Source: Cyanidioschyzon merolae (taxonomy: Eukaryota). Taken from it: a stretch of 64,000 bases of DNA. The notes under the pieces are model-generated. The model was not told the origin of the DNA, searched no databases, and saw only the letters and a program-made list of their open reading frames with translations. The stretch lies in assembly GCA_000091205.1 (NCBI GenBank), contig AP006495.2. The stretch is one strand, 5' to 3'. Both the position numbers and the translations under genes were made by a program. Positions within the stretch are counted from its first letter, which is position 1. Each line of letters starts with the position of its first letter. This document shows, piece by piece, positions 7,038 through 53,900 of this stretch.

Positions 7038-7067
7038 AGCTGCTGCTGCTGCTGCTGCTGCTGCTGC
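7038..7067. repeat. (CTG)9 microsatellite.
   Basis: Direct read: gagctgctgctgctgctgctgctgctgctgctgcc. Confidence 0.8.
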
Positions 7068-9954: not shown

Positions 9955-10405
9955 TCACCTGAATGGTGTTCCAGTGCAGGTGCGTGTTATCAAATGCTTT
10001 TTCGGCGGTTTACGGCAATGCGTTCCAAGTGCGTTCGTTTTGGAGACATAGATAATCCAAGGGAAAGGTATGGACAGAAAATTCGGGGATCCTGGGTAAT
10101 GTCATCGCCAGTTGCGGGAGAGAAACAAAAAAATCCTGTTCTCCCTAAACACCGAGTGAAGAAGAGCAAGTGGCGAAGAGCTAGAAGAGGCAGAACGGGG
10201 ATCGAAGGATGCGGAAAGGATTTTTCGCCCTCTTTTGGCAGACGGCTACACCAGGCACCCAGTATCCCCGAATTTTCTGTCCATACCTTTCCCTCGGGTT
10301 TCTCTAGTTCTTCGCAGGAACGCACTTCGAATGCGTCTGCCGTAAACCGCGAAAAAGCATTTCATAACGCGCACCTCGGATGAAGCACAGTGCAGATAAA
10401 AGAGT
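9955..10405. mobile_element. Palindromic (MITE-like) element made of two inverted copies of the 5' end of the Fanzor-like family.
   Basis: The left arm 9960-10100 (aatgctttttcggcggtttacggcaatgcgttccaagtgcgttcg...ggaaaggtatggacagaaaattcggggatcctggg) and the right arm 10260-10400 read as reverse complements of each other; each arm is >=140 bp. Both arms match the 5' UTR plus the first codons of element A (15560-15650) and element D (58412-58520). Confidence 0.45.
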
Positions 10406-13745: not shown

Positions 13746-15655
13746 CCAGGTTGAAACTCTCGCCTGTTGCGGCACAAAACAGCAGGCGTGGTTATCGGAA
13801 CAGAAGGATTTCACGACTAGAGGGTAAATGGATGCTGCCATGCTGACGCCTCACGGTCTTTTTGGGCCGGCCACCTGCTATCGACTTCATCTTCTTCCCG
13901 TAAAATTCCACACTGAGAGGCTGCTCCACAAAGTTGGCTCTCGTCAGCTCTTTGGGTCTCTTCTCCATTACGACACATCTCCGTATAGTGATGGCGGCAT
14001 GAAAGTCTCGGGTCACAGCCTCCATGCGTTTCTTGCCGCCGCTGGTTGTACTCACCAGTGCAGGGTGTCCTCGAACTCATGCCCTCTGTGGCATTTTCTG
14101 TTCCGCCAGCGCTCCGTACTTTTCGATATCCGCAGGGCTCCTGTGAAACTTTTCCATCTCGAACCTCTGAAGCGTACACCTCAGTTCGTGGTGCACATAC
14201 GATGTTCGGAACTCTTATGTATGTATTGTGAAAAAACGGTGTGCATACTCTTTGTACGCTCTTGTCGACGGAGCTGGTGCACATCCTTTTTTATGCGTCA
14301 AGCGCCCTGTTCCGAGTGCTATCACGAGTCGTTGACTCTTGTCCTCCTTGAGGGCGCTCAACTTATTGAACAAGTTGGCGAATGCACGCTGCTTCCCACA
14401 GTCCAAGTCGATACGCTGACGAGCGCACCGGCGCTTGGTGTACTCTTTCCACATCTCCTCGGAATGAGCAACGCGAATTTTCACGGACTCCTGAAAAGCT
14501 TGAAAGCTCGCACCTCGGCTCGTCACATTGCGGAACTCCTTCTTCCTGACATCGTACTCCAGACTGATCTCCCTCGTGATGCCGTAAAGGGCTCTGGAGC
14601 CAATTGTCACCAAGTGCGACTTGATGTTGCGTATGGGAACGACATTGAAGCGCTTCTCTAGTAGGGAAGCGTTCCGTTTCTCCGACTCTTCATTTGCTTC
14701 CACATCCTGCTCCATTGCGGCCTTGCGATCGAGTTGCCGGTTCAGGACCACAAAATAGCACAGCATCAGAGGATAACTTTTCTTAATCTCTGATACCTTT
14801 TCTGCTGGGTTGACCAGCCCCAAGACCGCCCGATGCTCTTAAATAGCCACACGGATCGCAGAAGCTTCATTCGTGCTTCTGCGTGATGTCTTCTTGTCGA
14901 CGAACTCGATCCCCTGTTCGTGCTGGGGATCGTTCATGATGCCATTGATGATGGCCCATGTTCCTTTGCGAGAGAGGCCTGGGTAGAGTGGAAGAATGGA
15001 GCGTATCATGAAACGTTTGAGGTTCACGATCATGTGGTTCTTCAGGCCCATGAGGTACTTGATTGCCCCTCATCCGTAAACGCACAAGTTACCCTTGTAT
15101 CGAGTACTGTTGAAGCGGAATTCGGGGTGATATTCGTGGCGGGCGTGCACTCGCTCATTTCTCCGCGAGGTTTCCCACGTGCTAACCTTCAGGTGGCTGA
15201 TGAAGCTCTAGTCGTAAAATTCTTCCGGAACCTCGACTGTTTTGATGGCCGTCACGTCGCGATACATCTCCCTCGCCAAATGCATTAGTCCTGACGACGC
15301 CTATGTAATACTCTTGGAGTACGAATCGACATGGTTTCTGATAGCGTCTCGCAGCTTTTGCTTGTACGGATTTTTGATATATTTAAGAAGACAGGCTTTC
15401 ACCACAGTCTCGTTGTACTGTGGTCTTTCTTGCAGCCATTGACGTCGGACCTCCTGCCTTCGCTTCTTCGTCTTCTCCAGTCCCTCTCTGCTTGGGACTG
15501 TTTTTCGTTTTTTTCCGCTAGCCGGCGACACGAATCCTCCAGGATCCTCCACTTGCTTCTAGATAAGTATCGTTTTTTATTTTTGAAAACGAACCCACTT
15601 CGAACGCTTCTCCTATAAACCACGAAAAAGCACTCGAATACACTAATGTGAGGGT
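13700..15655 (-). mobile_element. Fanzor/TnpB-like (OMEGA family) transposable element, copy A, near full length (~1.9 kb).
   Basis: The 5' end (plus-strand 15575-15650) is homologous to the 5' ends of copies C, D and the 10 kb palindrome. The 3' tail (ccggtacgaaaaagactcagg...) is a diverged version of the tail shared by B, C and D. The internal ORFs encode an NLS-rich N-terminus and the RuvC-III motif. Confidence 0.5.
13792..15552 (-). pseudogene. Fanzor/TnpB-like RuvC nuclease gene, apparently frameshifted.
   Basis: Colinear minus-strand ORFs: 15301..15552 (MEDPGGFVSPASGKKRKTVPSREGLEKTKKRRQEVRRQ, basic NLS-like), then 14839..15051, 14215..14823 and 13792..14055 (GGKKRMEAVTRDFHAAITIRRC, the D-x-N-A-A-x-N-I RuvC-III signature). 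The 150 bp before the motif is split over three frames, including a Cys/His-containing stretch (RKCHRGHEF) in a third frame. This indicates frameshifts or unrecognised introns. Confidence 0.5.
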
Positions 15656-16663
15656 TGGCACCCTACCGAACTGAAAGACTATACTTTGCTACAACTCGAA
15701 CGCTAGTACATCTTGTACAGCAGAACACCACGCTAATGATCAGGATCGCGTTTTCCTCCATAGGCGGCATTTGCGTCATCTCTCATGCCTGCCAGATATC
15801 GACGTGCATATATCGACGACGCTATAGAAAGAAGGAAAAGAAAAGAACCACGTACTAGCAACTCAATTAGAAATTCTTTCTTTCTGTGCGGTATACATTA
15901 GAAAGGGGAGCAAGCTTTCCGAACACTCGAACGTTTATCTTCTAGGCGGAAGGTTTCTCGAGCCTGACGAGTCTGCCGCGCTCGTGTTTCATGCTCCTCC
16001 TGGTGGCGGGTGCTGTACTGAGCTCCGAGCAGCTGTCCGTAACGCAGGTTATTCTGGGACTTGGAGCCGGTAAGCGGCATCTGGATATCGCCCTAGTCGC
16101 GGTGACCTCTTTGTATATCGCTTCGCGCTGTCGCAGGCCGTACGCTTTTCTACACAGTTTGCTGCCTCCGAGAATGATAGTGCATCCCGAATCCGTATTG
16201 AATGAAGCACGACTCGAGCCTTGACTCTCGGTGGTGTGGCAACGCCTTCTGTCTCTATGCTGCATCCGCACCTGCGGTATGGGTGCCATTGCGGTTGCTC
16301 ACGGCAGGCTCGTCGGTCGATACAACGTTTGAAACGACCACTATATCCGAGAAGAAGTATGACTCATGGAACTTGGTAGCAGGGTGTGTTACAAGCGATG
16401 CTTCATGGCGCTAATGTCAAGCGTACACTCGGCAAAAAACACTGGCCTGTCAACGTTCTATCAATGAAAAATAAAAATCATTCGGTTGTTCGACCTGCGC
16501 AATTCTGCCCGTCTACTCGCGCCCAGCACCAAGCAGCAGCGCACACCACACGCACCTGCTTCGAGCGAGACTTTTACCAGGCCAAAACACTGGTCCGTTC
16601 TCTATGGCGAGTTTATTGGAGCGTGAAGAATTAGAGTGATAGAGACGTGGTACCCGAGCTCAG

Positions 16664-21740: not shown

Positions 21741-22061
21741 TCAGTAGTCGAGCGATGGTGATGGCTGCGTTTCAGTGATAGCTTCTGAATTCTGGCTGCA
21801 GTCGACGCATATCATGCACAGACGCAGGTCGCGATCTGGGCTGCGCTCGCCGTTTCCCTGTTCCTTTTTGTACATAGACTCTGTGCACTCTCCGCAGCAA
21901 TGACACTTGACTCTGGTCGGGTGTTCCCATATGTCCACTACACCTCTTATTCCTCTGAGGGCCGCTCTGTGACGCGTGAACGCTTGCCTAATCGCTCGGT
22001 ACCTGTCCGTGTCGGGTACAGAAGTCTCCCCTTGGTGCCCGCCTCCGTTTCCGTGCCCCAT
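21741..22061 (-). CDS. Possible small Cys-rich (zinc-ribbon-like) protein.
   Basis: The 106-aa ORF contains CHCCGEC ... CMICVDC. Weak call. Confidence 0.2.
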   Translation of the reverse strand: MGHGNGGGHQGETSVPDTDRYRAIRQAFTRHRAALRGIRGVVDIWEHPTRVKCHCCGECTESMYKKEQGNGERSPDRDLRLCMICVDCSQNSEAITETQPSPSLDY

Positions 22062-23971
22062 GCCCTGCCCTACTGCAGTCAGGAGCCTCCTCTGAGAGAT
22101 TATCGTCTCGAGTACGCTGACCGCTGCGCTCGTAAGCGTACGTTGTTCCTTTCGATAGTGGATTTATAGAATGCGTTGCTGTCCATGATGAACAGGTACC
22201 GCACGGAAAATCCAGGTTATAGTACAAGCCGCGAATCTTCGATTCGTCTGCACGCGCTCCAAACGAATCCGAAACACAGTCCCCGCTGAAATCGATCGCA
22301 GTGGTGACTCATGACCGAGTACAAGACTCTACGCCATGCAAACACAGAGGTCGCGAGCCTCCGGCATCGAATTCCATGAGGAGTATCAAGCTGCGCTCGA
22401 ATACCGTCTCGTCGACGGCCACAGAGAGAGGAGGACATGCTCTTCGAACGAAATCTAATATTGGCATGGAGGAACATAGTGCATTCTGGGCATGATTTTG
22501 TGAAGATGTCGTCACGGGTCACGATCGCGTTGCATTTTCCCTGTCAACCCAGCAGGGAGCATTGCTGCGCCTATGAGTTGCCTCGGATCGGAAAAGTGGA
22601 AGACTTTAGAGATGGCTGATTTGAGCATGCTACACCTAAAGAAAGACAGAGCGTGGACGCTCGTACACAAGAATCGATTGATCATATTGGTTATTTAATA
22701 GACGCTTTTTCGATGGCGTCACAGATCATCCTGATGACGGTCATGCAACGAATTCCAGCGTCAAAGATTCCAAACCGCCACTAGGAAATGGTGCCCGAGA
22801 ACCCCAAATCTACGTGCCATACGATCGCACCTCCTCCTGCATGTCGAATGTCGAGGATCTACATCTAAAAAACACGCGGAAAGAAAATCGAAAAGTAGGA
22901 ATAGAGCAATCAGCCAAGTGTTTCCGTTCAGCCTAATACCGGTGTAGGGAACCGACGAGTCGGCACCGTTCAGCGCGCGAAAGTTTTCCTGGCTGCGGCT
23001 CGGTTCCCTGCGAGCCCTCTCAAGTCCACGACACTAAGAAACCTTCTTGCCATCATTTCCAAAAGCGACGTTGAATGCAGAATGTCTCGCGGGCTCGGGT
23101 AGTTCGCTTGGCGGTGCGTTGTGGTTCCAGGCAGGGCGAGCGCTGCAGCACCGCTCGAGCGCCCTCCACCAGTCCATGGACGATGCCGTGGGAAGCGCGC
23201 TCTGCGCTCAGGCCGCGTCCCCGTCGCCGAGTTCCTCCAGCGTATTGGCCTGCTCACCCAGCCATGGACCCGCTTGTACAGCCGTTCAGCGTCCGGATGG
23301 ACAAGGAGACTCACGGCAGTGGGCCGCATATAATGGACCGTACGAGCCAGCATCCGCAGAGGCAATGTGTACCCATTCTGTCGCTGTGCGGCGCCTGCGT
23401 GTTCGCTGGATCCATCAAGCCCTTACTCCATAGATCATCAATGCTCTAGGGCTCTTGGAACATAACGGCATCTGCGGAAGCGTCCAGCTTCATGTCCTGT
23501 TTACCAGCCGCACTCGCGTACGCACGAGAAGCGTATTCCATTCTGCTATCTGGCAGCATTGGAAAAAACGCAGTGCGGCCATAAAGTGTTTGTGCGTCGC
23601 ATAGCCCCCAGACGCGCCGACATTGGATATCACGCACCGACTCCGTTCCGTTAAGGTGCAATCGAATACTGAAGAGGTGACGTTTGCGCCTCCTGCCGAA
23701 AACCTGCCGAGTACAAGCAAACGGAATCGTTTGGTATGCAGAAGCCATCGGAGGCTCCGCTGAAGATTCAGGCGCCTGGCCAGCGCTCGCTCATCACCGT
23801 CATGTCTTCGTATGCCTCTGGACGAGCGGATACGTCGCGAGATTCCTCGACGACGTTGCAACGGTGAAAAAAATGCGATCAAGCGACGCTTCAGCTGGCC
23901 GAGACGCGGTGCCTGCTGCATTAATGATCCTGCTCGCACTCGTGTACTGCGCTGTGCCGTACTCTGCCTGA

Positions 23972-25795: not shown

Positions 25796-26794
25796 TGCGA
25801 CGACTCACGCCGGTGTTCTCTCCAAGGTAAAGGCCCTGGGAGCGCCCTCGTCCCGAAGACCAACTGGACCCGCACCGCTGAACGCACAAGTCGCCGCCTG
25901 AAGAAGGTACCTTGAGGGGCTGCTTTCGAATATCGAGACTGCTTTTGGAATGCGGTGCACAGCAGCTCTATCCAAAGCGGCAACTTTCCACAGTGCCAGC
26001 AGTTCAAGTGTATGTACAGCGCCGTCGACTAAAACAGGCACGGAACGGCGAACGCCCACAGTTCAAATACCGCTTCGGAAATGCAGCTTGGAATCAATTT
26101 TTCGTTGACGAAACGATTACGTTGATCTTGGATCCCAGACTGAACGATGAATTTTGGTATCCTGGTATGCGTTCATCGAGCTATACCCTACCTTCAAGTT
26201 CCATTACTTATACGTTGTTCCGGATGTACCGACTGTTTTGTACGTTCCACTGTGTACCAAGCCCGCCGTGAGCACCCCCAACAGCGATTATACTGCTGGT
26301 GCATATGTATGACGGAGACAGAGCGGCTTTGCCATTCCACTGCGGGCGTCGGATGGAGGAATGCTATGCCTGACACGGAATCAGGGCTAATGGTCATTCT
26401 GGGAACCTGAAATATGCGCAGAGAAACTTACTGCCTGCGGCAGCGCCAAGCGATATGCTAGGAGATAACTGCAACATGGGCGATGCCCAGACGCAGCCTA
26501 CCCGCTCCTAGTCCCAGAATAACCCGCGTTGCGGACGAGTCGCTCAGGTCTCATTACAACATCCGCCACTGGAGGGGACGCGAAGCACGGGCCTGGTAGA
26601 CAAGTTCGGCTCGCGGGACCTTCCGCCTGGGAGATAAGCTTTCGAGAATACGGAAAATTTTTCCCTTTCAAAGGTTACCATGAAGGTGGCACCAGAATGC
26701 TATCGAGTTGCTCGTTAATGGATATTTTCTGTTCTTTTTACACATTTGCAGCTAGTACGTCACGTGTTTCTGTTGTTACCACCACGGATACTTC

Positions 26795-27019
26795 GTGGAA
26801 CCCTTGAAGACTTTTCCCTGGCGTCAGGCGACATCCTTCTTTTTCACAACATGGCATTTCACCCTTCGAGTTCGAACTTTTACCGATTCTATATGGGTAG
26901 ACCTGCATTTCATTCCGCCATATTCGCCGTACTTCAACCGCATCGAAGAATTCTTTTCTATGTTGAAACGTAATGATCGCTCAGATGGAAGAATCGCTGA
27001 AGATTTCAGCGCACGGTGA
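26795..27019 (+). pseudogene. Tc1/mariner-type (DDE_3) transposase C-terminal remnant.
   Basis: IWVDLHFIPPYSPYFNRIEEFFSMLKR matches the hallmark ...D..(L/F)PPYSPDLNPIE..W..LK C-terminal block of Tc1/mariner/IS630 transposases. No upstream catalytic region is left. Confidence 0.45.
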
Positions 27020-27079
27020 CACACCGGACCATATGTCGTCTCTCTTCCGCGGGTCCTTCTCCCTCTGGGAAGGTCCCTA

Positions 27080-27482
27080 CCTCAGGGCATTAGCACGTGC
27101 GTTCATTTAAAGAAATAAAAAATCCAAGCGATGAGCTGCGCTGTACACTGCAGAGGGTCGAGATGCAGAAGGGCCGGCAGAGCGCTCAGTGGATTGAAAA
27201 GTACGCAACGCTGACAGAGCAGAAACTGGCGCAAAGGGCATGAGTTTTAGCAATCCTTGCAATAATGCGTTCTAGTAGAGGCAAGAAGCGCATGGAGTTC
27301 GTGAACCGAACCTTGAACGCCGCCATCAATATCAGACGATTTGCGATGCTGGGGAGAGAAAGCCCAGGAGTTGACGCGAGCCAACGTTGTGGAGCAGCCT
27401 CTCAGGTTCAAAGTATACAAGGAAAATCTATAACCAGTAACATGCGGCCGGTCAAAAAAGGCTAGGAGGCGTCTGTGAGTGG
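27080..27482 (+). mobile_element. Fanzor-like family, copy B: short internally deleted derivative (~0.4 kb).
   Basis: 5' end tagcacgtgcgttca..taaagaaataaaaaatcca is homologous to the D/A/C 5' ends. ORF 27265..27465 encodes GKKRMEFVNRTLNAAINIRR (RuvC-III motif). 3' tail gcagcctctcagg...ccggtcaaaaaaggctaggaggcgtctgtgagtgg. Confidence 0.55.
27385..27482 (+). ncRNA. Candidate omega-RNA scaffold: the conserved 3' tail of copy B.
   Basis: Homologous to 58818-58934 (D) and 48958-49043 (C, minus strand). Contains the conserved hairpin agcct-ctc-aggct/aggtt and the terminal GGCGTCTGTGAGTGG block. Sequence diverges immediately downstream. Confidence 0.3.
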
Positions 27483-27823
27483 TTTCCAGGGTACCCTCTC
27501 GAGCCGATGCCCTCTGCGATATGGCAACGCCGACCTCTGTCCGTGCCATGACCGCACCGGCACTACAGGCGCTATTCCGGACATTCAGGCCATGCACTAC
27601 GCCCGAGGTAGAACGTCTGAAGCGGCCAGTATATCCGGGAAGGGTTAGAAGTTATGGAACTTGGGAGTAGAGCGCGCAATGATGGATGCTTCACTGTGCC
27701 CTGATATCGAGCGCCCAGTCGCAGAACGCTGGTCTAGGTCCAGGTTTCATGGAATTCAAGAATGCAACATTTCACGCCGACTCTGTCGGAAACCGCGCCC
27801 GCGCAATACCTCTTCGATAGCTT

Positions 27824-29295: not shown

Positions 29296-30535
29296 AACGG
29301 AACACGAACGTGCGACACAACGCGAACTCTTCCGCACTACACTACCTGCCGAGTGCTGGATGCGATCAGCCCTGCGATCGCTTGCGCGATATTGTACACT
29401 GCGCGGGGACGAATGCGTCAGCGCGCACGCAGATAGACACGTGCCGTTGATGCTGCACGATGCGCCACGTGGCGCGCTGTGCGATGCGATGACGCATCGA
29501 GTGCTCACCCATGCAGCGGTTGTAGCGGCGGCGCTGTGCCGTCTGCGCATGCGTCCGCTGATTCGGTGCTGGCCGGTGCTGTGCGCGCGTATCGCACTGG
29601 GAACGGCGCGCCGCTGGGGCTGCGGAGCGATACGCTCCTCGGTGCAGCGGGGAGAGATGGTCGCTCGCGTGGCGTCCATGTCGCTGTGTATGTGTCTGGA
29701 TGTTATCTGATTAGGGTGCAGCCTGTACAAACGTTTGATCCGTGTCCGTATGCCTTGCAGACGATCGTCTCGACCGTAGATAATGCAGCGTGAGCGAATA
29801 GTCGGCGGGAGACAAAGGCCTGTGCGACACTGGCGTTTCGCTTGTGAACAGAAATAGACGAAGCGCGATGCATGGCGGTACCGAACTGGTGTCGAATGGA
29901 CGCTCGGTTTCGCACAGAGCGATCCAGCATGGAACCATGTATGCTCGGTGTTTGGGTGTATGGAGAGTATGCGTGCTTCCGGAGCAACGATACGGAACCT
30001 TGGGATGCATGCTCGTCGCTGAACGATAGCACTCTTGGAGGTGCCGATCTTTTCTGGATACCTGACTTTTGATGTTGTCCGGATGCTCTCCAGAGACGTG
30101 TGCGTTGAACCTGTCCGATGTACTTGCCAGACCGGCTCGGCACGGGCCATGCACTCGCACTGACAGCAGAGTGTAGGGCAAAACGACTATAGAATCGGAC
30201 TCGAAGTGTTCCGTCTCCAAGGTTTCCGCCCCCCGATGTTTGGAGCGGTACTTCTAGGCGAAGCTCATCATGCATCACTTGCGGTAGCCCAAAAGGGCAA
30301 CGCGAAGCTGTCTCGCATGCTTGTGAGGCAGCAGCAAAGCCTCCAATGCCAAAGAAAAAGCATCCCCAGGAGAATCTGGTACCCAGGTGGGCGCTGAATC
30401 GATTCGGTCCAAGTCGTCTTAAGTGAGGCTCGCTTCGAATGGCGCATCTTGGAAGCGACCGGTACAACACGCCAATGGCTTGCGTGGTAAACCAAGAATC
30501 ACATTGGCAAATCCGATGGGATCTGGTTAGGCGTG

Positions 30536-32420
30536 CAGCGACGAATGCTGGAAGGGACATTCGGACGTGATCTTGCTAATATTACTTGTTTCTCTCACAG
30601 ACGTTCAACAAAAGAAACGGATCCTGCAGATTCGACAGACATAGCAGATACACTCTACACAAGCGCTGCTAACATGCGAATCAATGGGGCTTACCTCTAG
30701 CGTGCAGGCATTCTACGTTCAGCACTTTGGTGAACCAGTACTCTCTAGGGCCGTGCGCTAAACGTCGAGCACCCGAACAGAGCCTCTGCAACGCCGTCAA
30801 CGCGACAGTCGTCCGAGCAGTCCATTCCGCTCCATCCATGCGTGCCGCACCAAATACGACCAGACAAGCCACAGAATATGAATGCTCCGCCCAGGTGCGA
30901 CGGACGCTCCTGAGGCGACGCCCCCGGGGAAAGCAAAAAGCACGCCGAACAACACAGACCGGTGACTTCCGACTGAGACGCGAACGCTGCGTGCAGCAAG
31001 CACGGGTTCCCGCCGCACTCGGCACGACTGTATCCGGGCGAGACGCCACACCGCCTCCACAAGGGCATTCAAAGAGCGAGCAACATGCCGCTGGGCGTCT
31101 ACAGAAGACCAGCCAGCATGCCGACTGCATCAGCCACTGCGGCGATTCGGTCGAGCGGTCGCTTGCAACTCGCCAAACGCGCGAAATCCTTCTAGAGCCG
31201 GTCCTTCGTCGGTGCACGCTTCGTCGCTTCTCCTTCACACATGCCGCTGCCCTGCCCCGAGACAACGACGACGCCCATCACTGAAAATCAGCGGAGGAGT
31301 GCGCAGCTTGTCTGGCGTTCCCGCCCCTCATTCCGAGAACGTTGCTAGGCGTTCCAGACGCGGGGCTGCCAGCGGTCCGCGTCCCTCAGAGAGCCTGCGA
31401 TCCAACGTTCGTGGGGCACTGCAGCTGACGCTCGGCACCCCAGGGACAATACGAGTTCATTCTTCCAGGGCGTGGTAGCATCGGGAGTCGGGCGCGACGG
31501 ATGCCACCAGGCCTATCGACGAGCGGAGTGACGGCCCCAGGACCCGTGTGGACGCGCTGAGAGTGCCGTATCGAGCAGCGCGGGATGCGCTTCACGCTTC
31601 GCTCAGGGAGTACGCGAGACTCTGGATGACTCACGCGGACAGTCTATTGATCGAGTCCACGAGACAGCGCAATGGAGTCGCCGGCCGTTGCGGCCGTACG
31701 GGGCCAGTGAGCGTGCCCTCGCCAACATGTTCCATGACCACGAAGGGCAACTGGCCGATATATCGTTTCGCTCGATGGTGGTGATGGCGGTGGGCGTAGC
31801 GGCACCCGCTGGCACTGGGCGTGCCGGGGCACCCAAGCGCTGCACGCCTCTGCTCCCTCGACGAGCGTTTCCAACGAGTGCAGGACTCGATGCCATGCGA
31901 TTCCCGTGATTGGCTTTCCGACGACATCCACGCGTCACGGGCTCGGGTGCTCGCTGATCCCCAGGTAGCGAAGAAGCACATGAAGCAGAGACGGATGCAC
32001 GGCATGGTGTGCGGCAAGCCGATCGGACGTCAGCGGGCGAGACAATCGAAGACGACCGGCTCGCGATGTGGCGTGCTTGCACCACGAACAACGCGTGTGA
32101 GGAGTTTCTGCACGCGGTATCGAACGCGTCGTTCAACACCCGGACCTGCCTGGTGCATCCGGTGCGTCCAGGAGCTCTGTGTTGAGCGGACATTCAAGGG
32201 AACGTTTGTTTCGTAACGCAGCCGAGGTACTGTACGAAAGGCGCTGCAGTGTTTTGATGAACAGAAATCCGTGCCCAGGCGAGAGCGAGAACGGGATATT
32301 CGCCTAGCGTCATTCACTGGCAGGTTATGGTTCAGCGATCCGGATAGACGTCAGAAGTGCATCGATAACGGTTTGCCGGGGCATTTACTGAGCGACCATG
32401 GTGCTCCATGGTTCAACATC
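30536..32420. repeat. Copy 1 of a ~1.9 kb near-identical direct duplication (copy 2 at 39358..41242).
   Basis: Colinear identity read directly from the sequence, with a constant offset of 8822 bp. Translated ORFs in the two copies differ at only a few residues. Boundaries are where the flanks diverge (agcgacgaat... on the left, ...ggtgctccatg.ttcaacat on the right). No convincing coding content. Confidence 0.85.
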
Positions 32421-33700: not shown

Positions 33701-35639
33701 CACGCACATGGAGCGGCGTTCTCCGCATCATCTGTTTTAAGTGTCTGCTGAAACTTGCCGAAATTTGGAGAATATCATACGCAGAGCGCGACTTCTCTTT
33801 TGTGAATCTTCAGCGGCGAGTCCACAGCGCCTTGGAGGTGCACGATATTTGCGGATGATAACCCGGTCTCAATGTTTACCGATCGCCATGTCGTTGCTGC
33901 GAGTGATGCACCCACGAAATGAAAAACTGTCTATGAAGATTAGAGGACCCTGTAGAGGATATCCGTAGGCAAATGTAGGCATCGAGTTCGGTTTGCATGA
34001 GGGCCCTGGAGCGCGCCGCACCTATTGCTTCCTATTCTCGGACTTGATGTCGACGTGCATGAACTGCAAGTGGTGTTCGCAGGAGGCGTCCATTTGCTCC
34101 ATCGGCATCCCAGATACATGCCGCCGTTCCGAGTTCGATACTACGGAGAAGTGATGGGCGTCGACCTCTGCGTTAATCTATTTCGCTTGTTGCAAGTCGT
34201 CTCGCGCGATGTGATAACGAAACTGATGGATTCAGGGCGGTAGGATTATCACCTATCTGTCGTAGACTTGGCGACGAACTGGCATGCAAAGCGACTACTG
34301 CGTGTAACTCGGACACTTCGAACGCGTAAGCGAGGTTTCGGAATCTCTGGGCGGCACTGGCGATCAACCGTACTCCGCCTGACTCGTGTTCTGTACCTCT
34401 CCGGAACAGCATTTCCAGCTTTGTTTCAGTGGCGGCGTTTTCCGGCGATCCGGATCGCGCAATGAGCCGTATGCCGCAGAAAGCCATCCGAGCATGATAC
34501 GATTTTGAACAATAGAGGATCGATGCATTTGTCCGCATCCCACCGAAAGCGCGGAGAATGTCGGTGATCAGGCAAGGATAAACGTGCCTGACACAGGGAG
34601 AAACGCTCTCGGCGAACACTTGTTGGAGTGTTCTCTCTATCTGCCGGACTTGATGCAAGAAAGGAAGTACACGTCCCGCGAGACGATCCATGCGCGCCGC
34701 AGACCGAGGCACAGCGGTCTCGTGAGCGTCTGGCTCAAAGCGCATTCGCCACCCTACCCCAGTCACATTGTAAAGCGTGCAACTGGCGACGTATTGAATT
34801 GGGCAGCATACGGAATGATCGACGCTTTCTCTCTCTATCTCCCTCAAGCATCCATAGAGTCCAGAGAGGTATCCTGCTGAGCGATGACAACGATCATCGC
34901 GCCGTAGTTGTTGCAGTTGCGACGAATACGCCCGCGAGATGCTAAGCCTCATCACTGGTTTCGGGCACGACGCAAACGCTGCGGTGAGCTTGCGGCGCGT
35001 GCACCTCGGCTCTCTCCGAGCGCCGCTGTAACCTATACGTTGTGCCGTCCAAACAAATACGTACGGAGCCCAGCTGCCGATGCCTGTCCACATAGTTGCC
35101 GCTCACCTGAATGCCATCGAAATAGCTCGGAGCACCCGAGCTCAAGTCGAGAGTCGCGCTTGTGTTATGACGCTCGAACCTAGGTACCGCGGGCGCCTGT
35201 AAACCTTGCTTACCCGGGAAACCTCTCATAGACGCTATCGCACAAAAGTGCTTTCAGTCTTCGAACATCTGAGTATTGGCGGAAACCAACGCGCTGTCTC
35301 CTTGGTCCGTCATGTCTCCGTTTCCACGACAGCCTTGATGAGACGAACCCACGATCCATGCGCCATGCGCCGTGAGGAAGTACGCTGAAGCGCGGGCAGG
35401 CTCTTTGAAAGTCACCTGTGCACGCACATACGCACAAAGGCACACAGGCACAGTAGCGTGGATACTGATGCCGCGCGCTTCCGCCGCTATCGATAAGGAG
35501 CGTAGCAGGCGAGTCCTTCCCCCAGTGTCGATGCATGTACGGTGTGGGCTGGTGGTGCTTTCGATGCACAGGGAGCGGCGTGCGCGGAGCCGCTCCAGAA
35601 GCACGTGAGGTAGGCTCGGCACTAGGAATGCCGCTGGAG

Positions 35640-36110
35640 TGTACCGCTATCACGATGGTAATACTTGCCTGGGGCTGGTCGATTCTTGTTGTAGGTCTGG
35701 AGCGAGGCGTGATCGTCATGTCGCTGGACCAAAATGCGATTCCAATGGTAAGACTTGCCTGGGGCTAAACGATTCTCGTTATGTGTCTAGACCGAGGCGT
35801 GATCGTCATGTCGCTGGACCAAAATGCGATTCCAATGGTAAGACTTGCCTGGGGCTAAACGATTCTCGTTATGTGTCTAGACCGAGGCGTGATCGTCATG
35901 TCGCTGGACCAAAATGCGATTCCAATGGTAAGACTTCCCTGGGGCTGGTCGATTCTCGTTATGTGTCTAGACCGAGGCGTGATCGTCATGTCGCTGGACC
36001 AAAATGCGATTCCAATGGTAAGACTTGCCTGGGGCTAAACGATTCTCGTTATGTATACGGAGCGAGGCGTGATCGTCATGTCGCTGGCTTTCGTACCGAT
36101 CACGCATCCA
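35640..36110. repeat. 90-bp minisatellite, about 5.2 units.
   Basis: Unit tgtcgctggaccaaaatgcgattccaatggtaagacttgcctggggctaaacgattctcgttatgtgtctagaccgaggcgtgatcgtca. Full units start at 35719, 35809, 35899 and 35989, with partial units at both ends. It produces artefactual repeat ORFs on both strands. Confidence 0.85.
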
Positions 36111-39263: not shown

Positions 39264-39357
39264 TTCGGAGGGTTAGCATTGCGGCACTAGGCGAGAACGG
39301 CGCTTGTATGCGCTGCGCTTCGCGGCCGCAGGTTCGTGTTTCCTGGTGTTTATACGT

Positions 39358-41242
39358 AGAGCGACGAATTCTGGAAGGGACATTCGGACGTGATCTTGCT
39401 AATATTACTTGTTTCTCTCACAGACGTTCAACAAAAGAAACGGATCCTGCAGATTCGACAGACATAGCAGATACACTCTACACAAGCGCTGCTAACATGC
39501 GAATCAATGGGGCTTACCTCTAGCGTGCAGGCATTCTACGTTCAGCACTTTGGTGAACCAGTACTCTCTAGGGCCGTGCGCTAAACGTCGAGCACCCGAA
39601 CAGAGCCTCTGCAACGCCGTCAACGCGACAGTCGTCCGAGCAGTCCATTCCGCTCCATCCATGCGTGCCGCATCAAATACGACCAGACAAGCCACAGAAT
39701 ATGAATGCTCCGCCCAGGTGCGACGGACGCTCCTGAGGCGACGCCCCCGGGGAAAGCAAAAAGCACGCCGAACAACACAGACCGGTGACTTCCGACTGAG
39801 ACGCGAACGCTGCGTGCAGCAAGCACGGGTTCCCGCCGCACTCGGCACGCCTGTATCCGGGCGAGACGCCACACCGCCTCGACAAGGGCATTCAAAGAGC
39901 GAGCGACATGCCGCTGGGCGTCTACAGAAGACCAGCCAGCATGCCGACTGCATCAGCCACTGCGGCGATTCAGTCGAGCGGTCGCTTGCAACTCGCCAAA
40001 CGCGCGAAATCCTTCTAGAGCCGGTCCTTCGTCGGTGCACGCTTCGTCGCTTCTCCTTCACACATGCCGCTGCCCTGCCCCGAGACAACGACGACGCCCA
40101 TCACTGAAAATCAGCCGAGGAGTGCGCAGCTTGTCTGGCGTCCCCGCCCCTCATTCCGAGAACGTTGCTAGGCGTTCCAGACGCGGGGCTGCCAGCGGTC
40201 CGCGTCCCTCAGAGAGCCTGCGATCCAACCTTCGTGAGGCACTGCAGCTGACGCTCGGCACCCCAGGGACAATACGAGTTCATTCTTCCAGGGCGTGGTA
40301 GTATCGGGAGTCGGGCGCGACGGATGCCACCAGGCCTATCGACGAGCGGAGTGACGGCCCCAGGACCCGTGTGGACGCGCTGAGAGTGCCGTATCGAGCA
40401 GCGCGGGATGCGCTTCACGCTTCGCTCAGGGAGTACGCGAGACTCTGGATGACTCACGCGGACAGTCTTTTGATCGAGTCCACGAGACAGCGCAATGGAG
40501 TCGCCGGCCGTTGCGGCCGTACGGGGCCAGTGAGCGTGCCCTCGCCAACATGTTCCATGACCACGAAGGGCAACTGGCCGATATATCGTTTCGCTCGATG
40601 GTGGTGATGGCGGTGGGCGTAGCGGCACCCGCTGGCACCGGGCGTGCCGGGGCACCCAAGCGCTGCACGCCTCTGCTCCCTCGACGAGCGTTTCCAACGA
40701 GTGCAGGACTCGATGCCATGCGATTCCCGTGGTTGGCTTTCCGACGACATCCACGCGTCACGGGCTCGGGTGCTCGCTGATCCCCAGGTAGCGAAGAAGC
40801 ACATGAAGCAGAGACGGATGCACGGCATGGTGTGCGGCAAGCCGATCGGACGTCAGCGGGCGAGACAATCGAAGACGACCGGCTCGCGATGTGGCGTGCT
40901 TGCACCACGAACAACGCGTGTGAGGAGTTTCTGCACGCGGTATCGAACGCGTCGTTCAACACCCGGACCTGCCTGGTGCTTCCGGTGCGTCCAGCAGCTC
41001 TGTGTTGAGCGGACATTCGAGGGAACGTTTGTTTCGTAACGCAGCCGAGGTACTGTACGAAAGGCGCTGCAGTGTTTTGATGAACAGAAATCCGTGCCCA
41101 GGCGAGAGCGAGAACGGGATATTCGCCTAGCGTCATCCACTGGCAGGTTATGGTTCAGCGATCCGGATAGACGTCAGAAGTGCATCGATAACGGTTTGCC
41201 GGGGCATTTACTGAGCGACCATGGTGCTCCATGATTCAACAT
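39358..41242. repeat. Copy 2 of the ~1.9 kb direct duplication.
   Basis: See copy 1; same orientation. Confidence 0.85.
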
Positions 41243-41847: not shown

Positions 41848-42275
41848 CACCAGCAGCACCATCTCACAACGCATGGACGATGGAAGTATATCTGTCCCAT
41901 GATCACTGCAGCGCAGCAGTGCGCTGTACAAACAGCACCATCTCACAACGCATGGACGATGGAAATATATCTTGACCCATGATCACTGCAGCGTAGCAGT
42001 GCGCTGTACAAACAGCATCGCCAGTGCGATTGGACGATGGAAATATATCTTGACCCATGATCACTGCAGCGTAGCAGTGCGCTGTACAAACAGCATCGCC
42101 AGTGCGATTGGACGATGGAAATATATCTTGACCCATGATCACTGCAGCGTAGCAGTGCGCTGTACAAACAGCACCATCTCACAACGCATGGACGATGGAA
42201 ATATATCTGACCCATGATCACTGCAGCGTAGCAGTGCGCTGTACAAACAGCATCGCCAGTGCGATTTTTTACATC
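41848..42275. repeat. 78-bp minisatellite, about 5.5 units, with two alternating variants of a ~16-bp sub-block.
   Basis: Unit gacgatggaaatatatcttgacccatgatcactgcagcgtagcagtgcgctgtacaaacagca followed by either ccatctcacaacgcatg or tcgccagtgcgattg. Read directly from the sequence. Confidence 0.85.
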
Positions 42276-48216: not shown

Positions 48217-48957
48217 TCACTAGTTTCTGAAAACTGGTACTCCGATAAGGTGAAGTAAGATTGTCGAAGCAGTAACTGTTCATTGCAGGCTTTGCTGCGC
48301 CGCCTCCAGCGCCGATCTGCAACGCTTGTCCAGTGATTTAGAAATGGACGGTCAGCGCGATTTGCTTTGTGTTTCATAGACGCTTACCTTGATCGGGGAT
48401 CCCAGATTGCGGTACGGATGGTACCATTCAGAGATGCGTCCAGCATTTCCATTCCAAGTTCCATAACCCATACTTCTTCTTTGATGTGCTGGTGGTTTTT
48501 TACGTTCTGTCGTGCGCCGAGTGCCTGCCCTGATCGTCCGTGATAGCGCCTGTGCCGCCAGTTTGGATGCATCACAGCGACAGAACCACTTTGCCATACC
48601 GCAGAGGGCGTCGGCTCGGGGCGCGGTTCACTCGCCACAGAATCGAGCCTCAAATTCGATTCGTGCTCAGCCGGTTTGTGGATGCAGACTTGCCTTCGGT
48701 GCACTGCGCGTTGGAGAAATTTGGCTGTTAGGATGTATCCTGGGGGCCGCTTCTCTCTTGCGCGATCGTGTGTGAAATTCGTGTGCGGCTCGCAACACGG
48801 ACTTGTGCTTGGCACCCACCAGTGGGTAGGTGCCCAAAGCGCTGGGCCGACCCGCAATGAACGGTAGTTCAGCGAGAGGCGTTGCGCAAAGGCATGCTCG
48901 CAGCGTCGGCACGCTCAACGCAGCGAAAACGTACCGCTCCAATGAGGTATATGAAGA

Positions 48958-49497
48958 CCCATCAGCAGACGCCTGCCAGCCTTTTCCGACCAGCCGCATG
49001 CTATCGATTTCGGCTTCTCCCTATACATTTCGAGCCTGAGAGGCTACCCCACAGAGGGCGTGCGCGCCAGCTCCCCGGGGCTCCTCTCCGGCGCAGCACA
49101 TCTCCTGATGCTCGTTGCAGCATGAAAGTCTCGGTTCACGAATTCCATTCGTTTATTGCCTCCGTTTGCACTCACCAATGCAAGGAGCACTCGAACTCGT
49201 GCCCTCTGCGCCAATACAACCTCGTCATCGTTCCGTCTCGCAAACACCCTTGCTCGCCTATCTCGCCTTTTCTTCGTCTTCTTCTTCATCGTCGAATGCT
49301 CTACTTTGCTCGATGGTTGGCAAGAGGATAATTTTTTCGTTTGCTTCAAGCATCCGGAAATAACGGCCATCAAGGATCACCCATTTCCACATCCATACCT
49401 TTCCCTTGAATTTTTCGTTTTTTGAAAATGAACGCACTTCGAACGCGTCTGCTATGAGCCTCGACAGAGCATTTGCTGACGCTCGCCCGCTGCGGCT
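48958..49497 (-). mobile_element. Fanzor-like family, copy C: short internally deleted derivative (~0.54 kb).
   Basis: ORF 49044..49373 fuses the N-terminal homology KTKKRRDRRARVFARRNDDEVV (cf. copy A KTKKRRQEVRRQWLQERPQYNETVV) to NKRMEFVNRDFHAATSIRRC (RuvC-III). Plus-strand 49414-49497 is the reverse complement of the family 5' end. The 3' tail (minus strand) tgtggggtagcctctcaggctcg...gaaaaggctggcaggcgtctgctgatggg is ~85% identical to copy D. Confidence 0.55.
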
Positions 49498-49512
49498 TGG
49501 ACTACAATTCAT

Positions 49513-50973
49513 GTGACAAACGGGAACGAGCGTCGATCACCGGCACCGAGCGCGGCGCGTGTTAGGCGCGTGTCCGGCGCGTGTCCGGCGCGTGTCCGGC
49601 GCGTGTCCGGCACGCGTGCAGCGCGCAGACACCTGCCGTCGACGCGGGCATCGGTGAGCATCACGCTCATCACAGGAACGGTAACCGTGGCATGCGCGCT
49701 CCTGCTTGCTCCAGAGCAGGGCTTTGGACTCCTGGTCATCCAAAAGCTGGGAGCTTGTTGCGTGGTTGTCGCAACCACGGTTGTTCGGCACGTTTGGCGC
49801 CAGCAAAGGCCAGGAACAATGGCCTTCGTTCAGCTCGCTTCGAGGAGAACCGGCGGACGAAACCAGTTCCGGGGTCGCGCTGTGGATAGAACGTTAGCGG
49901 GAGGTGTCAGACACCCGAGCGAACGTGGAACTGTAAAGTTTTCCTCAGGTCTGAGGCTGCAACTTACACCGGGGTTCCCTCATTCCAAGGACACTGGGAG
50001 ATCGGGCCGTAGCGACCGGGAGCCTGCATTTTCCGGGGATGCGGATGCGCTGCGCCTTCCTGCCTTGACCAGGGCAGCGCTATCCTTAGCGCCAGCGCTT
50101 GTAACTGTCAGCGCGCAAGACACGTCTGTATCGAGATCAAAAGCTGGAGGCGCCTCTGGAACAAGTCCGATGAATAGTTCTGCGGTCGCATCGTGGCCCA
50201 GAACTGAGCTCACAACCGCAGCGTTTCGATATACGTTCTATTCACTCGGTTCTAACGATAACTTGTACAAGCAAACGCTACAAGCGGAGATACAATCCAA
50301 ATTAATCCACGTGGGCACGGAGGGCGCAGCCCTGATTGTTCGAGTGGATCCAAGCTATGTAGCCTGGGTAGATGACGCACAAATTACAGAGCCGCGAATG
50401 CCCGGGACGCTCGCGGACAGGGTTGGCGGTCGACCGCTGTCCGCCGATGCGCATCTCAGGGGCGGCTCACCAGGGCCGTACCACGCCACAGAATCGATGC
50501 GCAGTGAATTCGTTGCAGATGTCGAACATGGAACTGGAAGGAAACCACATTTCGACCGAGCAGCGTACAAGCGCCTTGACGAGAACCAACGATCGTCGCG
50601 TCCATGCCCTCGGGCGTTGACGTCACCGTACATTGCGGGCGGTGCGCTCCCTTCGGATGAAGAGGGACTCGCTCAAAGATGCCGACTGTATATCGAAGGC
50701 GAAGTTACGCACGCTCTCCCATGTAATGCATCATTCCATGGCCCAAGTCCGCCCGAGTGTTTTATTGTGCGAGTTTTACGAAGGTGCCAGAACGTGTTTC
50801 GACAGTTTGCGGGAAGCGAACCATGCAGCGCATCTCCAACCACCATCGAGGAGTCTGTCGAGGATTTCTGCATTATGTGTTCAGCCCAGAGAGGGAGTGC
50901 AGAGTGCCGCTCTTTTCCTGCGACGCTGGGTACCGGCATTAACGTGGCGTTGAATGCGCTTAGCGCTACATAG
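49513..50973 (+). CDS. Hypothetical ORF; only the C-terminal ~260 codons look protein-like.
   Basis: The first ~200 codons run through the 11-bp microsatellite and Arg-rich GC-skewed sequence. From MNSSAVASWPRTELTT onward the composition is balanced, with a Cys-rich C-terminus. No family recognised. Confidence 0.2.
   Translation: MTNGNERRSPAPSAARVRRVSGACPARVRRVSGTRAARRHLPSTRASVSITLITGTVTVACALLLAPEQGFGLLVIQKLGACCVVVATTVVRHVWRQQRPGTMAFVQLASRRTGGRNQFRGRAVDRTLAGGVRHPSERGTVKFSSGLRLQLTPGFPHSKDTGRSGRSDREPAFSGDADALRLPALTRAALSLAPALVTVSAQDTSVSRSKAGGASGTSPMNSSAVASWPRTELTTAAFRYTFYSLGSNDNLYKQTLQAEIQSKLIHVGTEGAALIVRVDPSYVAWVDDAQITEPRMPGTLADRVGGRPLSADAHLRGGSPGPYHATESMRSEFVADVEHGTGRKPHFDRAAYKRLDENQRSSRPCPRALTSPYIAGGALPSDEEGLAQRCRLYIEGEVTHALPCNASFHGPSPPECFIVRVLRRCQNVFRQFAGSEPCSASPTTIEESVEDFCIMCSAQRGSAECRSFPATLGTGINVALNALSAT
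49555..49600. repeat. (GGCGCGTGTCC)4 microsatellite, 11-bp unit.
   Basis: Direct read. Confidence 0.75.
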
Positions 50974-53900
50974 GTTGTAATAGGCTAGGATGTTATGTGT
51001 ATTGTATTTAAAGCGTAACGTTCTTCAGGGGAGTTTGAAGGACGTGGCTTCTTTGGCCCCTTTTCGAATCGAATCAAATACAATGCCGGAATGCGCTTCA
51101 GAAAGCAGGACGAGCCAGTAGAAGCAGCGCAGGTGCTGTGGAATGGTGCGTTATCCGGAATTGCATACTAGCGGCTGAAGAGCTCTGAGCTCGAAACCCG
51201 TGCGAGATTGGAATGAGCTACTGAAAAGCTCGATCTGTTCCTGCCTTTCGATTTTTCATCTACCTCTTCTTTAGACGTACCACGCTGGATATTCGAAGCG
51301 CATGAAGAGGGGCTCTCGGATTCACTGTTGGGTTCAGGAGTCTCGAGTGTGTTTCCAGAGTCGATCCGTCGGCGCTTTGACGCTGGCATTCGTTACGTCA
51401 CTGGGAGCAAGATGATTCGCGACGCCATCGGATAAGGGTTCGTAATATAACAGATATCATTATCCAGTGCATAGGTGGAAGCCGCCATGCTTCTCGTGTT
51501 TTAGTTGGTACAGCATACTTGAATCGCTTGTGCGTCGAGCTTCCGATTCTTTGGTTTCAAGGCGACGCGTGGTCGCAGCAGTTCGCTCCAATAGAACGAC
51601 GTCGAAAAATATTGGATATCGTCCATTGGCGACTTGTTCACAAGCTCCTGCCGATAATTCGCCGGACTTGTCGCGTGAAACATTCGATTTCATGCTAAGG
51701 ACAAAACCTGCGCCTGATGCGGTCATGAACGAAACGACATTCGACACCAGCTTGATACCTCCGACAAGATATGCCCTCGAGACTTCTTTCTCTTCCAGTG
51801 GCATGGAAACCGATCGTAGACTCTGACACTAGTCGTCGTGGCGACTTGTTTCAGTAAAGCGTGCGTCAACGCTTGGAACGGAGGGAGCGCAGGCCGATCG
51901 ATATCTGTCGACTTGTTTTGCGGTATGGATTTCATATCTGGTACCTGTTTCATCGTTGGCCACATTTCGTTACAGAAGTGCTCCACGAAATGGAACGACA
52001 CGGGCTTGTGTGTGCAGCGGACAAGATCACTTGCCGAGGGATCGCCCAGAAGAAGCGCGTTATCGTAGTGTCGGGCATTGAGCGCGGAAACAGAATGGTC
52101 CATCGAGCGAGGCCTCGTCTACCCGTCAATGAAAAGTATCGAGCGCTAAAGAGAGTGCTCTGTCGCGACAGAGCGGCCTTCAGAGGAGCACGAGCCGAGG
52201 TGGATATAGGGGAGCGTCTGACCTCAACCAAGTGTTGCATAGCTCTGAAGCGCACACCGTGCCTGTTACGGTAGCAGATTCTTTGATCGAGACTTGCGTC
52301 TGTGAATGAGGTGTGTCCATAACAGCCGGCAGATGTGAAATCAGGTCTCTAGCAGAGCCCTCAGCATCATTCGACTACAGGGAACGAAGCATGGAGGAAC
52401 GGAGAGACTGGCGTACCTGGAGAAAGAGCTGGGGTAGCGGAAAAGGAAGCAGTCGCCGAAGAAGCCCGCATAGGCACGTATCGATGACATTGGGAAGAGA
52501 CTCAAAATTTAGAGCGGATGCTCGAATTAGGTACTGTACCCGCTCCATTTCAGTATGACACGGGTGTACCACTGTACTGATTTCTATGAATGTACCAAAC
52601 CGCTGAGCACCTGAGACCATCTCGTGTCTCTTCGTGGGCACCAGCTGATTCCAGTGCAAGTGCATGAGTGTTTTGGGCCACTGCCCATACGCGTCGCTAT
52701 ATCCAGTCTGCCTTGGCGCTCTCAAAGGTCGTTTCCAATAACGTAAGGTTGTTGAACCTGATCAGCGTGTCCCGGATGCAAGATTATTAGCAGCAACACG
52801 GTACAAGTTGCACGTTCCTCTCGGAATCTGATGACATGCCGTTGACTTCAGACCAATCATCTGACCGTGAATTGTGGTTAAATGAATCCAGTGACTATAC
52901 GGGTGCCGAGCTTGCCATGGATGACCCTGGGAAAATTCGCTCAAGGTGCTTTCTCAGACGCCGCAAGCGCTCCAGCGAAGTCATGAAGACATGCTCGCTG
53001 CTGGACAATGCCGCTTTCGAGATCGCGCAGAATACCGTCCGCTCGCTTGCAGGACCCACTTGATACAGCCTTTGTGTCAACACTGCAGCAGTTCAGCTGC
53101 ACTGTTCAGTGCCAGGCCGGAGCGCTCTCGCAGAATTTATACACATGCAGTAGACGTCCACTGGTCGGAGAGCAGAGGCCTCATGCGCCATGGCGCCTCT
53201 GTCCGGTGCTTGCACCCCAACAAGTGCCGCTGGAGAACACAGAGGAACCAGAGTGGAACGAGCCCGACAGCTTATGCCGCATCGTACGCATCTGGGTTTC
53301 TGAGAAACCTAATTCGCAACAATATTCCCAAATCAAACACCTGATGGAGGCGCTTACGAGCAGTGCTGATGCAGGATTAACGAGTCGCAGCCTTCATTCT
53401 CTTCGATCACAAAGCGAGCAGTGCCCTCTGCTGATCGTTCAAAGACAGTATCGTGGTATCCGTGGCCACGCCAGCATGCGTTTGCGCGTGGATAGCGCAT
53501 CTGACTCCACAATCCGTAGTTCATGGGATAGAGCATGCGGGATCACCATGACAAAGCTCAGCAGCGCGTGGCAGTCTATTCACGAAGCGATGCACCGGAA
53601 AGCTCATCCTCAACACGACGCCCGTAAGTGTTGATTGGAGTCAGGCAATCCGCAAATGGCGCCGCAACATGATGAACCCCTCAATCGATGGATGCTGTGT
53701 TTCACCGAGTGGCGCTGCTCGAGCACTGCAAGGCAGTACTAGTTATACAGGTAAGGCGACCGGAAGCTGAACAATTGGAAGAGGTTTGCGCACCCCGAGG
53801 TGCGTCTTCGGGACGAGGCCGTTGGACGAGCTGCTACCGCTGCAGGTGCGCCGCGGTATATCCATCGACAGGGCTCGTTTATTGTACATGTCTTGTGAAA

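Follow-up and report, generated by a model that had tools for sequence, protein, structure and literature searches.

The DNA analyzed here, referred to as the window, is a 64,000-nucleotide stretch of contig AP006495.2 from assembly GCA_000091205.1 of the red alga Cyanidioschyzon merolae. It holds two short collinear repeats (minis), copy C (48935-49521, minus strand, ~590 bp) and copy D (58395-58957, plus strand), which are remnants of a nuclease gene. With ~55% GC and long intron-free open reading frames (ORFs) the window resembles a compact eukaryotic genome, and its host ORFs encode isopropylmalate dehydrogenase (IPMDH), 6-phosphogluconate dehydrogenase, a PI3/4-kinase and others. The product of the IPMDH ORF (56723-57991) was identical to BAM81072.1/XP_005537108.1 of C. 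merolae 10D, and metagenome contigs 98.6-99.7% identical to the window were found, among them strain contigs L083, L084, L086 and L088. Self-comparison of the window returned a repeat family with five members: C, D, a nuclease pseudogene (copy A, 13814-15825, minus strand), a shorter derivative (copy B, 26991-27507, plus strand) and a head-to-head structure (E, 9949-10408).

An earlier note on this DNA, made from the sequence alone, had described C and D as fused mini-ORFs sharing one deletion breakpoint. Both peptides were reproduced exactly by translation (C: …KKKTKKRRDRRARVFARRNDDEVVLAQRARVRVLLALVSANGGNKRMEFVNRDFHAATSIRRC…, open from MKKK for 81 aa; D: …GDLLGSASPAAGKTRRNP…VFAQRDDDEIVVAYMARV…ARMEFVTRHFNDAIGIRRC…), and the codon-level junction was identical and ungapped. 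The copies had been located correctly, with extents given slightly short: the mini profile matched C at 49513-48935 (E 9e-172) and D at 58401-58957 (E 3e-165), the 5′ boundary of C was placed at 49521 by a profile of full-length 5′ regions, and identity across eight copies climbs at 49521 and drops past ~48960. In the fusion, codon ~45-58 of the nuclease gene (…ETVV) is joined to …AQRA.V, ~25 codons before the RuvC-III motif NRDFNAA, and the reading in all copies is …E-(T/V/I)-V-V / A-Q-R-A-x-V…. The junction lies at 49211/49212 in C (minus strand, …DDEVVL / AQRARV…, ungapped in the 4-way and 8-way alignments) and at 58679/58680 in D. Downstream of it, the RuvC-III remnant NRDFHAA of C (49116-49136, minus) aligns to NRDFNAAINI of the full-length proteins P0001 and P0002. 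The segment absent from the minis corresponds to 15399-14092 in copy A coordinates and to ~2 kb in a complete copy. Two other features mark the minis: the most conserved block, which precedes the native ATG and holds a TATA-like GGTTTATAGCAGA and then GCGTTCGAAGTGCGTTC (49420-49480 in C, minus), and the last strongly conserved motif, GGCGTCTG (48966-48973 in C, minus; 58919-58926 in D), past which weaker homology extends ~25-70 nt.

C (49487-48957) and D (58425-58935) aligned as a single BLASTN high-scoring segment pair of 534 nt with 65% identity, collinear from end to end, and no further similarity was detected between their flanks over ±250-500 nt. The earlier note had set segmental duplication, with shared flanking sequence, against its reading beforehand; the C and D flanks are unrelated. 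As sources of the minis, segmental duplication and retroposition of a spliced mRNA are barely conceivable. The internal deletion alone speaks for them, the unrelated flanks contradict the former, and the latter was rejected because the copies have neither a poly(A) tail nor GT-AG boundaries and include ~75 nt upstream of the TATA-like box.

When metagenome contigs were scanned, 386 relatives were found; the best 80 loci were examined, and locus-flank analyses covered 82 loci. Two further collinear minis were met by chance in the flanks of fetched loci (L075, 7246-7792; L052, 1276-1862); L077 carries the L075 mini sequence and seems to represent that locus in a different assembly. A profile of the four fused peptides recovered 120 short ORFs in public assemblies, with the same junction in at least 13 distinct short-ORF clusters. 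DNA was fetched for four junction-bearing loci (L089, L091, L093 and L094), and all four were collinear with the mini profile (E 1e-112 to 1e-122) and had differing host-gene neighbours (MT-A70/ZZ; EamA and a proteasome subunit; MGMT and HSP70). Minis were aligned first as four copies (C, D, and the minis of L052 and L075, termed L052m and L075m) and later as eight (with L089m, L091m, L093m and L094m). Over full-length minis the nhmmer E values of 1e-112 to 1e-172 place the similarity far above chance. No window gene was found near the other loci of the metagenome scan, L052m and L075m included, and the mini loci showed no synteny with one another.

The junction and the 5′ start are common to C, D, L052m, L075m, L089m, L093m and L094m; L091m shares the junction only. 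All pairs among the eight minis are 62-70% identical, in a star-like pattern, and the minis carry derived residues (…LKTRP.EL, GQPLRLE) where full-length copies read …LEKRPPES, GQPLKVE, which argues for a single origin. One internal breakpoint thus recurs at eight sequenced loci with unrelated flanks (C, D and six others with differing host-gene neighbours) and in 13 or more ORF clusters, so one deleted element was amplified. This agrees with the earlier proposal that a single internally deleted derivative had multiplied, and its suggestion of a very abundant family is borne out by the 386 relatives in the metagenome scan and by ~150 published copies of the C. merolae family CMe-1A (PMC3627910).

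Independent deletions recurring at a hotspot, or through aberrant processing, would yield similar forms with no spread of one master, and the family does contain other deletion classes. Copy B (core 27094-27507; GGCGTCTG at 27468-27475) joins the 5′ non-coding region (…FKEIKNPS) to …DELRCTLQRVEM…; it retains 27133-27220, absent from C/D, and is without the N-terminal codons that C/D retain. B is therefore an independent deletion and not, as the earlier note held, a further-deleted relative of C and D; a B-type counterpart with 69% identity occurs in L046/L067 at 306-785. Structure E comprises two mini-type 5′ halves head to head with no 3′ part (9949-10220, plus; 10408-10214, minus); its arms are 84% identical to each other, and both start at the C/D 5′ boundary. 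At most ~10-25 nt separate the end of the plus arm from the C/D 5′ breakpoint, which favours a hotspot, as do family copies starting at internal reference positions 5109, 5437, 6760 and 6919. Similar head-to-head pairs of long copies were seen in L039 and L053. Against recurrence, the junction is codon-exact in all minis, the 5′ truncation point is shared as well (L091m: junction only), a tail variant and the derived residues are common to the minis, and copy A, as read, shows neither GT-AG boundaries nor long microhomology at the breakpoints. Recurrent deletion is accordingly very unlikely to account for the minis. At least three deletion classes have been propagated (A-type, B-type and C/D-type), all of which keep the 3′ ~280-390 nt. 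Fanzor1 families are often 5′-truncated and internally deleted with 3′ ends intact, as described for Chlamydomonas families (PMC3627910), a pattern that the 3′-intact classes found here echo.

Copy A, which the earlier note had used as its full-length reference, proved to be a deletion form. It occupies one frame with six in-frame stops (TAG, TGA, TAA) and is without a ~190-aa segment bearing RuvC-I, its homology to L001 being restricted to 4679-5978 and 6654-7339. The same deletion (L001 ~5979-6650) recurs in the copies of L002 (199-2229) and L069 (2286-4317), where a RuvC-I-less ORF (P0001, 562 aa, from a cluster of 18 sequences) is intact, and a nuclease-dead Fanzor1 form thus seems to have been propagated or kept. 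The A-type deletion also removes a 75-nt tandem repeat. Full-length Fanzor1 ORFs carry three to four such tandem units (25 aa each, acidic) just upstream of RuvC-I, at L001 6146-6450 and in most full-length loci, with copy number differing between loci. The longest relative (P0002, 752 aa) has all three split RuvC motifs: I (GADPGNTNII), II (VDEFRTS) and III (NRDFNAAINI). Motif I is lost in A and P0001; the minis keep motif III, mutated in several.

The conceptual product of copy A matched 37 JGI metagenome proteins (best 58% identity over 94% of the query). Single-sequence Pfam and PDB searches with the nuclease gave no matches. Exhaustive HMMER searching recovered 1232 relatives, and a profile of 28 relatives matched solved Fanzor1 structures: 9cf0 (PpFz1, Parasitella; E 1.5e-20), 8gkh (SpuFz1, Spizellomyces; 2.6e-14) and 9cer (GtFz1, Guillardia; 1.8e-8). 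Pfam Cas12f1-like_TNB was matched by 4 of the 28 profile members. Judged by its matches to solved Fanzor1 proteins, the parent nuclease is a Fanzor1. Full-length copies have 75-86% identity to the reference and show strong purifying selection (ratio of nonsynonymous to synonymous substitution rates, dN/dS, 0.06-0.26 over the C-terminal 66 codons), in agreement with a published remark on long-lasting coding capacity (PMC3627910).

One C. merolae Fanzor1 family, CMe-1A, has been described (Bao & Jurka 2013, PMC3627910), with ~150 copies, each ~80% identical to a consensus of ~3 kb, with no terminal inverted repeats (TIRs), no determinable target-site duplications (TSDs) and class unknown; its 5′ 635 bp equal a separate repeat, TE-N2_CMe, with ~70 copies (PMC3627910). 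The family found here likewise is of C. merolae origin, has Fanzor1 ORFs of which some are intact, measures ~3 kb with ~80% identity among copies, has no TIRs or determinable TSD, and shares a 5′ module of ~600 bp (~635 bp in CMe-1A) with a separate repeat. In the metagenome loci most full-length copies are preceded, at a distance of 10-90 nt, by this ~600-bp module. By published description the family matches CMe-1A, with TE-N2_CMe as the putative 5′ module. In the window, TE-N2-like modules lie at 15875-16405 (minus; profile U, E 8e-147), as the 5′ module of copy A, and at 26094-26739 (plus; E 9e-172), upstream of B.

The TE-N2-like repeat (X/U) had also been considered as the TIRs of a host transposon, a reading dropped because full-length loci have no flanking inverted repeats; the published description of CMe-1A explains the repeat as the element's 5′ module (PMC3627910). 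An inverted partial copy abuts the 3′ end of B (27485-27721, minus; profile U positions 36-274, E 2e-34), and another copy, inverted relative to C, adjoins the 3′ end of C (48378-48848, plus; E 9e-55). TE-N2-like copies abut the 3′ ends of four short derivatives in all: B, C, L052m (L052 1096-1289) and L094m (L094 1333-1571). B and L052m have different internal deletions and an identical junction with the inverted TE-N2 (…TACCC/CTCG(A/T)GCCGA, at its position ~262-274), which suggests a site preference or an old composite. Inverted TE-N2 termini (26186… and …27664) enclose the whole of B.

The minis C and D are probably members of a non-autonomous subfamily that arose by internal deletion within the CMe-1 Fanzor1 transposon family of C. 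merolae. One ancestral copy lost ~2 kb between codon ~45-58 (…ETVV) and …AQRA.V, including RuvC-I and RuvC-II, and was also without the first ~146 nt of the 5′ region and the TE-N2 module. This deleted ancestor then spread to many intergenic sites, its movement presumably supplied in trans by CMe-1/TE-N2 machinery. The present minis are old, star-like, fixed among strains and decaying. The CMe-1A paper (PMC3627910) describes the full-length family and TE-N2_CMe, with no ~0.6-kb subfamily fusing the N-terminus to RuvC-III, and as far as we checked the subfamily of C and D is previously undescribed.

The ends of the minis were compared with those of long copies. The minis and both E arms start at position 144-148 of the 5′ profile (24 long copies), with the later-found minis at 146-147; this start, which reads TTnnnG/TCTTTCAC, lies ~146 nt inside the 5′ region of long copies, and the ~600-bp TE-N2-like module is absent. 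At the other end, all window copies (A to D; E has no 3′ part) and all minis share sequence through GGCGTCTG, which is coding in the parent, as the ORF of an intact copy runs through it (…GGRSKKTGRRLHVSWRRFV and stop). Past GGCGTCTG similarity among the minis is weaker: it extends over ~25 nt (…GGGTAT….TACCC), to which perhaps another 45 nt can be added. In sampled full-length copies ~110 nt follow GGCGTCTG, with two GC-rich hairpins, and the element ends …GAA(A/C)GGCGTT; a profile of this full-length tail found no match in the mini tails. The earlier statement that the derivatives retain both ends was hence half right: sequence is shared to GGCGTCTG, whereas the true 5′ end and the TE-N2 module are lost and the tail differs. 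Helitron2-type features (5′-TC…CTRR-3′ ends, hairpins at the ends, insertion behind T-rich tetranucleotides) were considered in this comparison: full-length tails have the two GC-rich hairpins, the minis do not, and the mini termini are imprecise.

Two candidate readings of the ends were rejected. A full-length 3′ terminal motif, CTTTCGAAAGGCG, seemed by eye to be shared by D, L075m and L094m, and was dropped when nhmmer gave no support. It was also considered whether full-length copies owe their 5′ extension and 3′ tail to the flanks of a repeated target; no contiguous empty site was found among the 82 loci and the window. In the full-length 3′ tails (L003-L082, e.g. L004 4262-4369) the hairpins read GGAGACGTTTCGTCT and GGGCG…CGCC, with apparent compensatory variants (e.g. 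GGACACGTCTTGTCC in L072), and the tail ends …TTCGAA(A/C)GGCGTT. A motif of these tails, GCGTTCGAA, recurs in the conserved 5′ block.

The earlier note had likened the minis to MITEs (miniature inverted-repeat transposable elements) or IS605-like elements; this was not sustained, as neither TIRs nor end hairpins nor a TSD were found. No inverted similarity was detected between mini ends, and no TIRs flanked the full-length copies. Single-stranded DNA folds of the ends of four copies revealed no shared hairpins (z -1.6 to +0.6). Across the eight minis no TSD was consistent, the 5′ terminus being placed to within a few nt and the 3′ terminus to within tens of nt.

The same note had proposed a partner transposase (Y1 TnpA or Tc1/mariner). 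Y1 TnpA, IS607 serine recombinase and Tc1/mariner were sought, and none recurs beside family members in the flanks of the 82 loci. Among the Pfam hits listed for 148 cluster representatives (466 non-Fanzor ORFs ≥150 aa from these flanks, the whole genome being unsearched) there was no transposase or recombinase family, and no flank ORF recurred beyond assembly redundancy. Several points weigh against placing C and D in a mobile CMe-1 subfamily. No transposase candidate was found, and mobilisation in trans is inferred only; the mini tail past GGCGTCTG is weakly conserved, which leaves the 3′ terminus uncertain within ~25-70 nt; and no empty site, TSD or exact terminus was found, D being filled in all of the near-identical strain contigs spanning this position (L083, L084, L086 and L088). 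Exact-match look-ups for the genes adjoining C, in which strain polymorphism was sought to define termini, returned no matches. Finally, CMe-1A itself, as opposed to a sister subfamily, was chosen by agreement with the published description and not by comparing sequences.

Conservation is uneven along the minis. Pairwise identity in the 5′ block (C 49420-49480) is 0.77-0.81 among four minis and 0.66 among eight, and 0.6-0.74 over the whole 3′ part. The N-terminal remnant, at 0.32-0.47, is near saturation, from which we infer constraint on the conserved parts during propagation of the lineage. The ~60-nt 5′ block (TATA-like, GCGTTCGAAGTGCGTTC) may have a promoter or 5′ untranslated region role, and together with the ~280-nt 3′ part ending in GGCGTCTG it would form the cis-acting parts needed for propagation.

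A protein might have been kept by selection, with the minis encoding a domesticated or functional product that combines the N-terminal basic region with the RuvC-III/C-terminal part. The consensus of the eight minis is an open frame, 75 codons are frameshift-free in seven of the eight copies, and some intact ORFs of 81-127 aa begin at the native start (e.g. P0238 and P0227). The ratio of nonsynonymous to synonymous polymorphism (pN/pS) was 0.77 for the fused ORF (75 codons, eight minis), slightly under a neutral star-phylogeny simulation (0.88±0.08, P ~0.04-0.08). This is near neutral when set against the 0.06-0.26 of full-length copies; moreover, in-frame stops occur in 5/8 minis, the RuvC-III catalytic Asp is gone in D, L075m, L091m and L093m, and the copies are dispersed with no single conserved locus. 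A functional mini-protein is highly improbable on these grounds. The fused ORF does not encode a nuclease, and its evolution is close to neutral.

A guide RNA is another candidate for what was kept. In Fanzor/TnpB systems the guide RNA is specified by the 3′ part of the element, overlapping the 3′ end of the ORF and running to the right end (PMC10530073), which is where the retained ~280 nt of the minis lie. The minis might then be satellites that keep a promoter and an omega/fRNA scaffold, with the guides used in trans by full-length Fanzor1. Bacterial PATEs often encode omega RNAs used in trans (PMC10055086), the 3′ part is kept in every deletion class (A, B and C/D), and both this part and the TATA-like 5′ block are conserved in non-coding copies in which the N-terminal remnant is saturated. 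RNA structure lent no support: at this conserved 3′ region neither covariation nor a stable consensus fold was found. RNAalifold on 10 non-coding copies returned a covariation term of +1.34, with double changes in 2 of 39 pairs; over 36 copies it gave two small hairpins only, with fold z-scores mostly non-significant; and an Rfam search of the 3′ part had no match. An RNA that depends on protein would still be compatible with these results. Cis-acting transposition signals would predict the same conservation, and a satellite role of this kind is possible but unlikely. That the minis act as dispersed guide-only modules, each able to program full-length Fanzor1 in trans through a guide derived from the module's 3′ flank, is more doubtful. 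If true, this would give omega-RNA-bearing PATEs their first analogue in eukaryotes, and a guide role could explain why the 5′ block and the whole 3′ segment are kept at 62-70% identity.

The subfamily of deleted CMe-1 copies can be compared with three known systems. The Chlamydomonas CRe-1/2/3 families (non-autonomous Helitron2, PMC3627910) are, as here, 5′-truncated and internally deleted with intact 3′ ends; in CRe-1/2/3, however, the truncations vary among copies (one-ended transposition) and both TSDs and Helitron ends can be recognised, whereas the minis all share one truncated and deleted form and have no Helitron features that we found. PATEs, or minimal IS200-IS605 elements (Meers et al., PMC10055086), are like the minis protein-less TnpB-family derivatives that keep the guide-RNA-encoding end and have functions supplied in trans (for the minis, by analogy); PATEs carry subterminal hairpins and rely on Y1 TnpA for movement, neither of which was found for the minis, whose guide RNA is putative. 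MITEs share with the minis the character of short, non-coding, multi-copy deletion derivatives of DNA transposons in intergenic DNA; unlike MITEs, the minis have no TIRs or TSD detected, and their 5′ end is not that of the parent element. Amplification of one deleted copy as a non-coding hitch-hiker is ordinary transposon biology. The A-, B- and C/D-type deletions form a natural series from which one can read what is kept of a Fanzor1 element over long propagation: a short 5′ block and the final ~280 nt. In these segments the transposition signals and the guide RNA of the C. merolae Fanzor1 may be sought.

For annotation, the minis, A, B, E and the TE-N2-like pieces are best treated as relics of one known Fanzor1 family, not as genes. 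An example is the 5′ extension of a 506-aa methyltransferase ORF (12321-13841, minus), whose first ATG (13841) lies inside the 3′ tail of copy A. This tail is alignable with mini tails to ~13772-13790, and the real start is probably a downstream Met, e.g. near 13745. A similar chimeric model (P0031), in which a Fanzor C-terminus is joined to an unrelated methyltransferase, is present in the public protein set.

Other repeats were noted in the window. A tandem array, (GCGCGTGTCCG)n, at 49548-49610 directly adjoins the 5′ end of C, and the alignment of strain contig L083 to the window ends at 49727, short of this array. Two more arrays hold ~5 copies each of a 90-nt unit (35628-36087) and of a 78-nt unit (41849-42266). 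A direct duplication of 1.9 kb (30524-32419 / 39347-41242, 98.7% identity) is far younger than the transposon copies. Repeat pairs of low identity (66-76%) occur at 589-677 / 51373-51461 and at 5084-5445 / 21791-22156; the former also matches L001 11457-11760, which indicates another old repeat family in the window. A 5S rRNA gene lies at 62308-62428 (Rfam RF00001, 94 bits).

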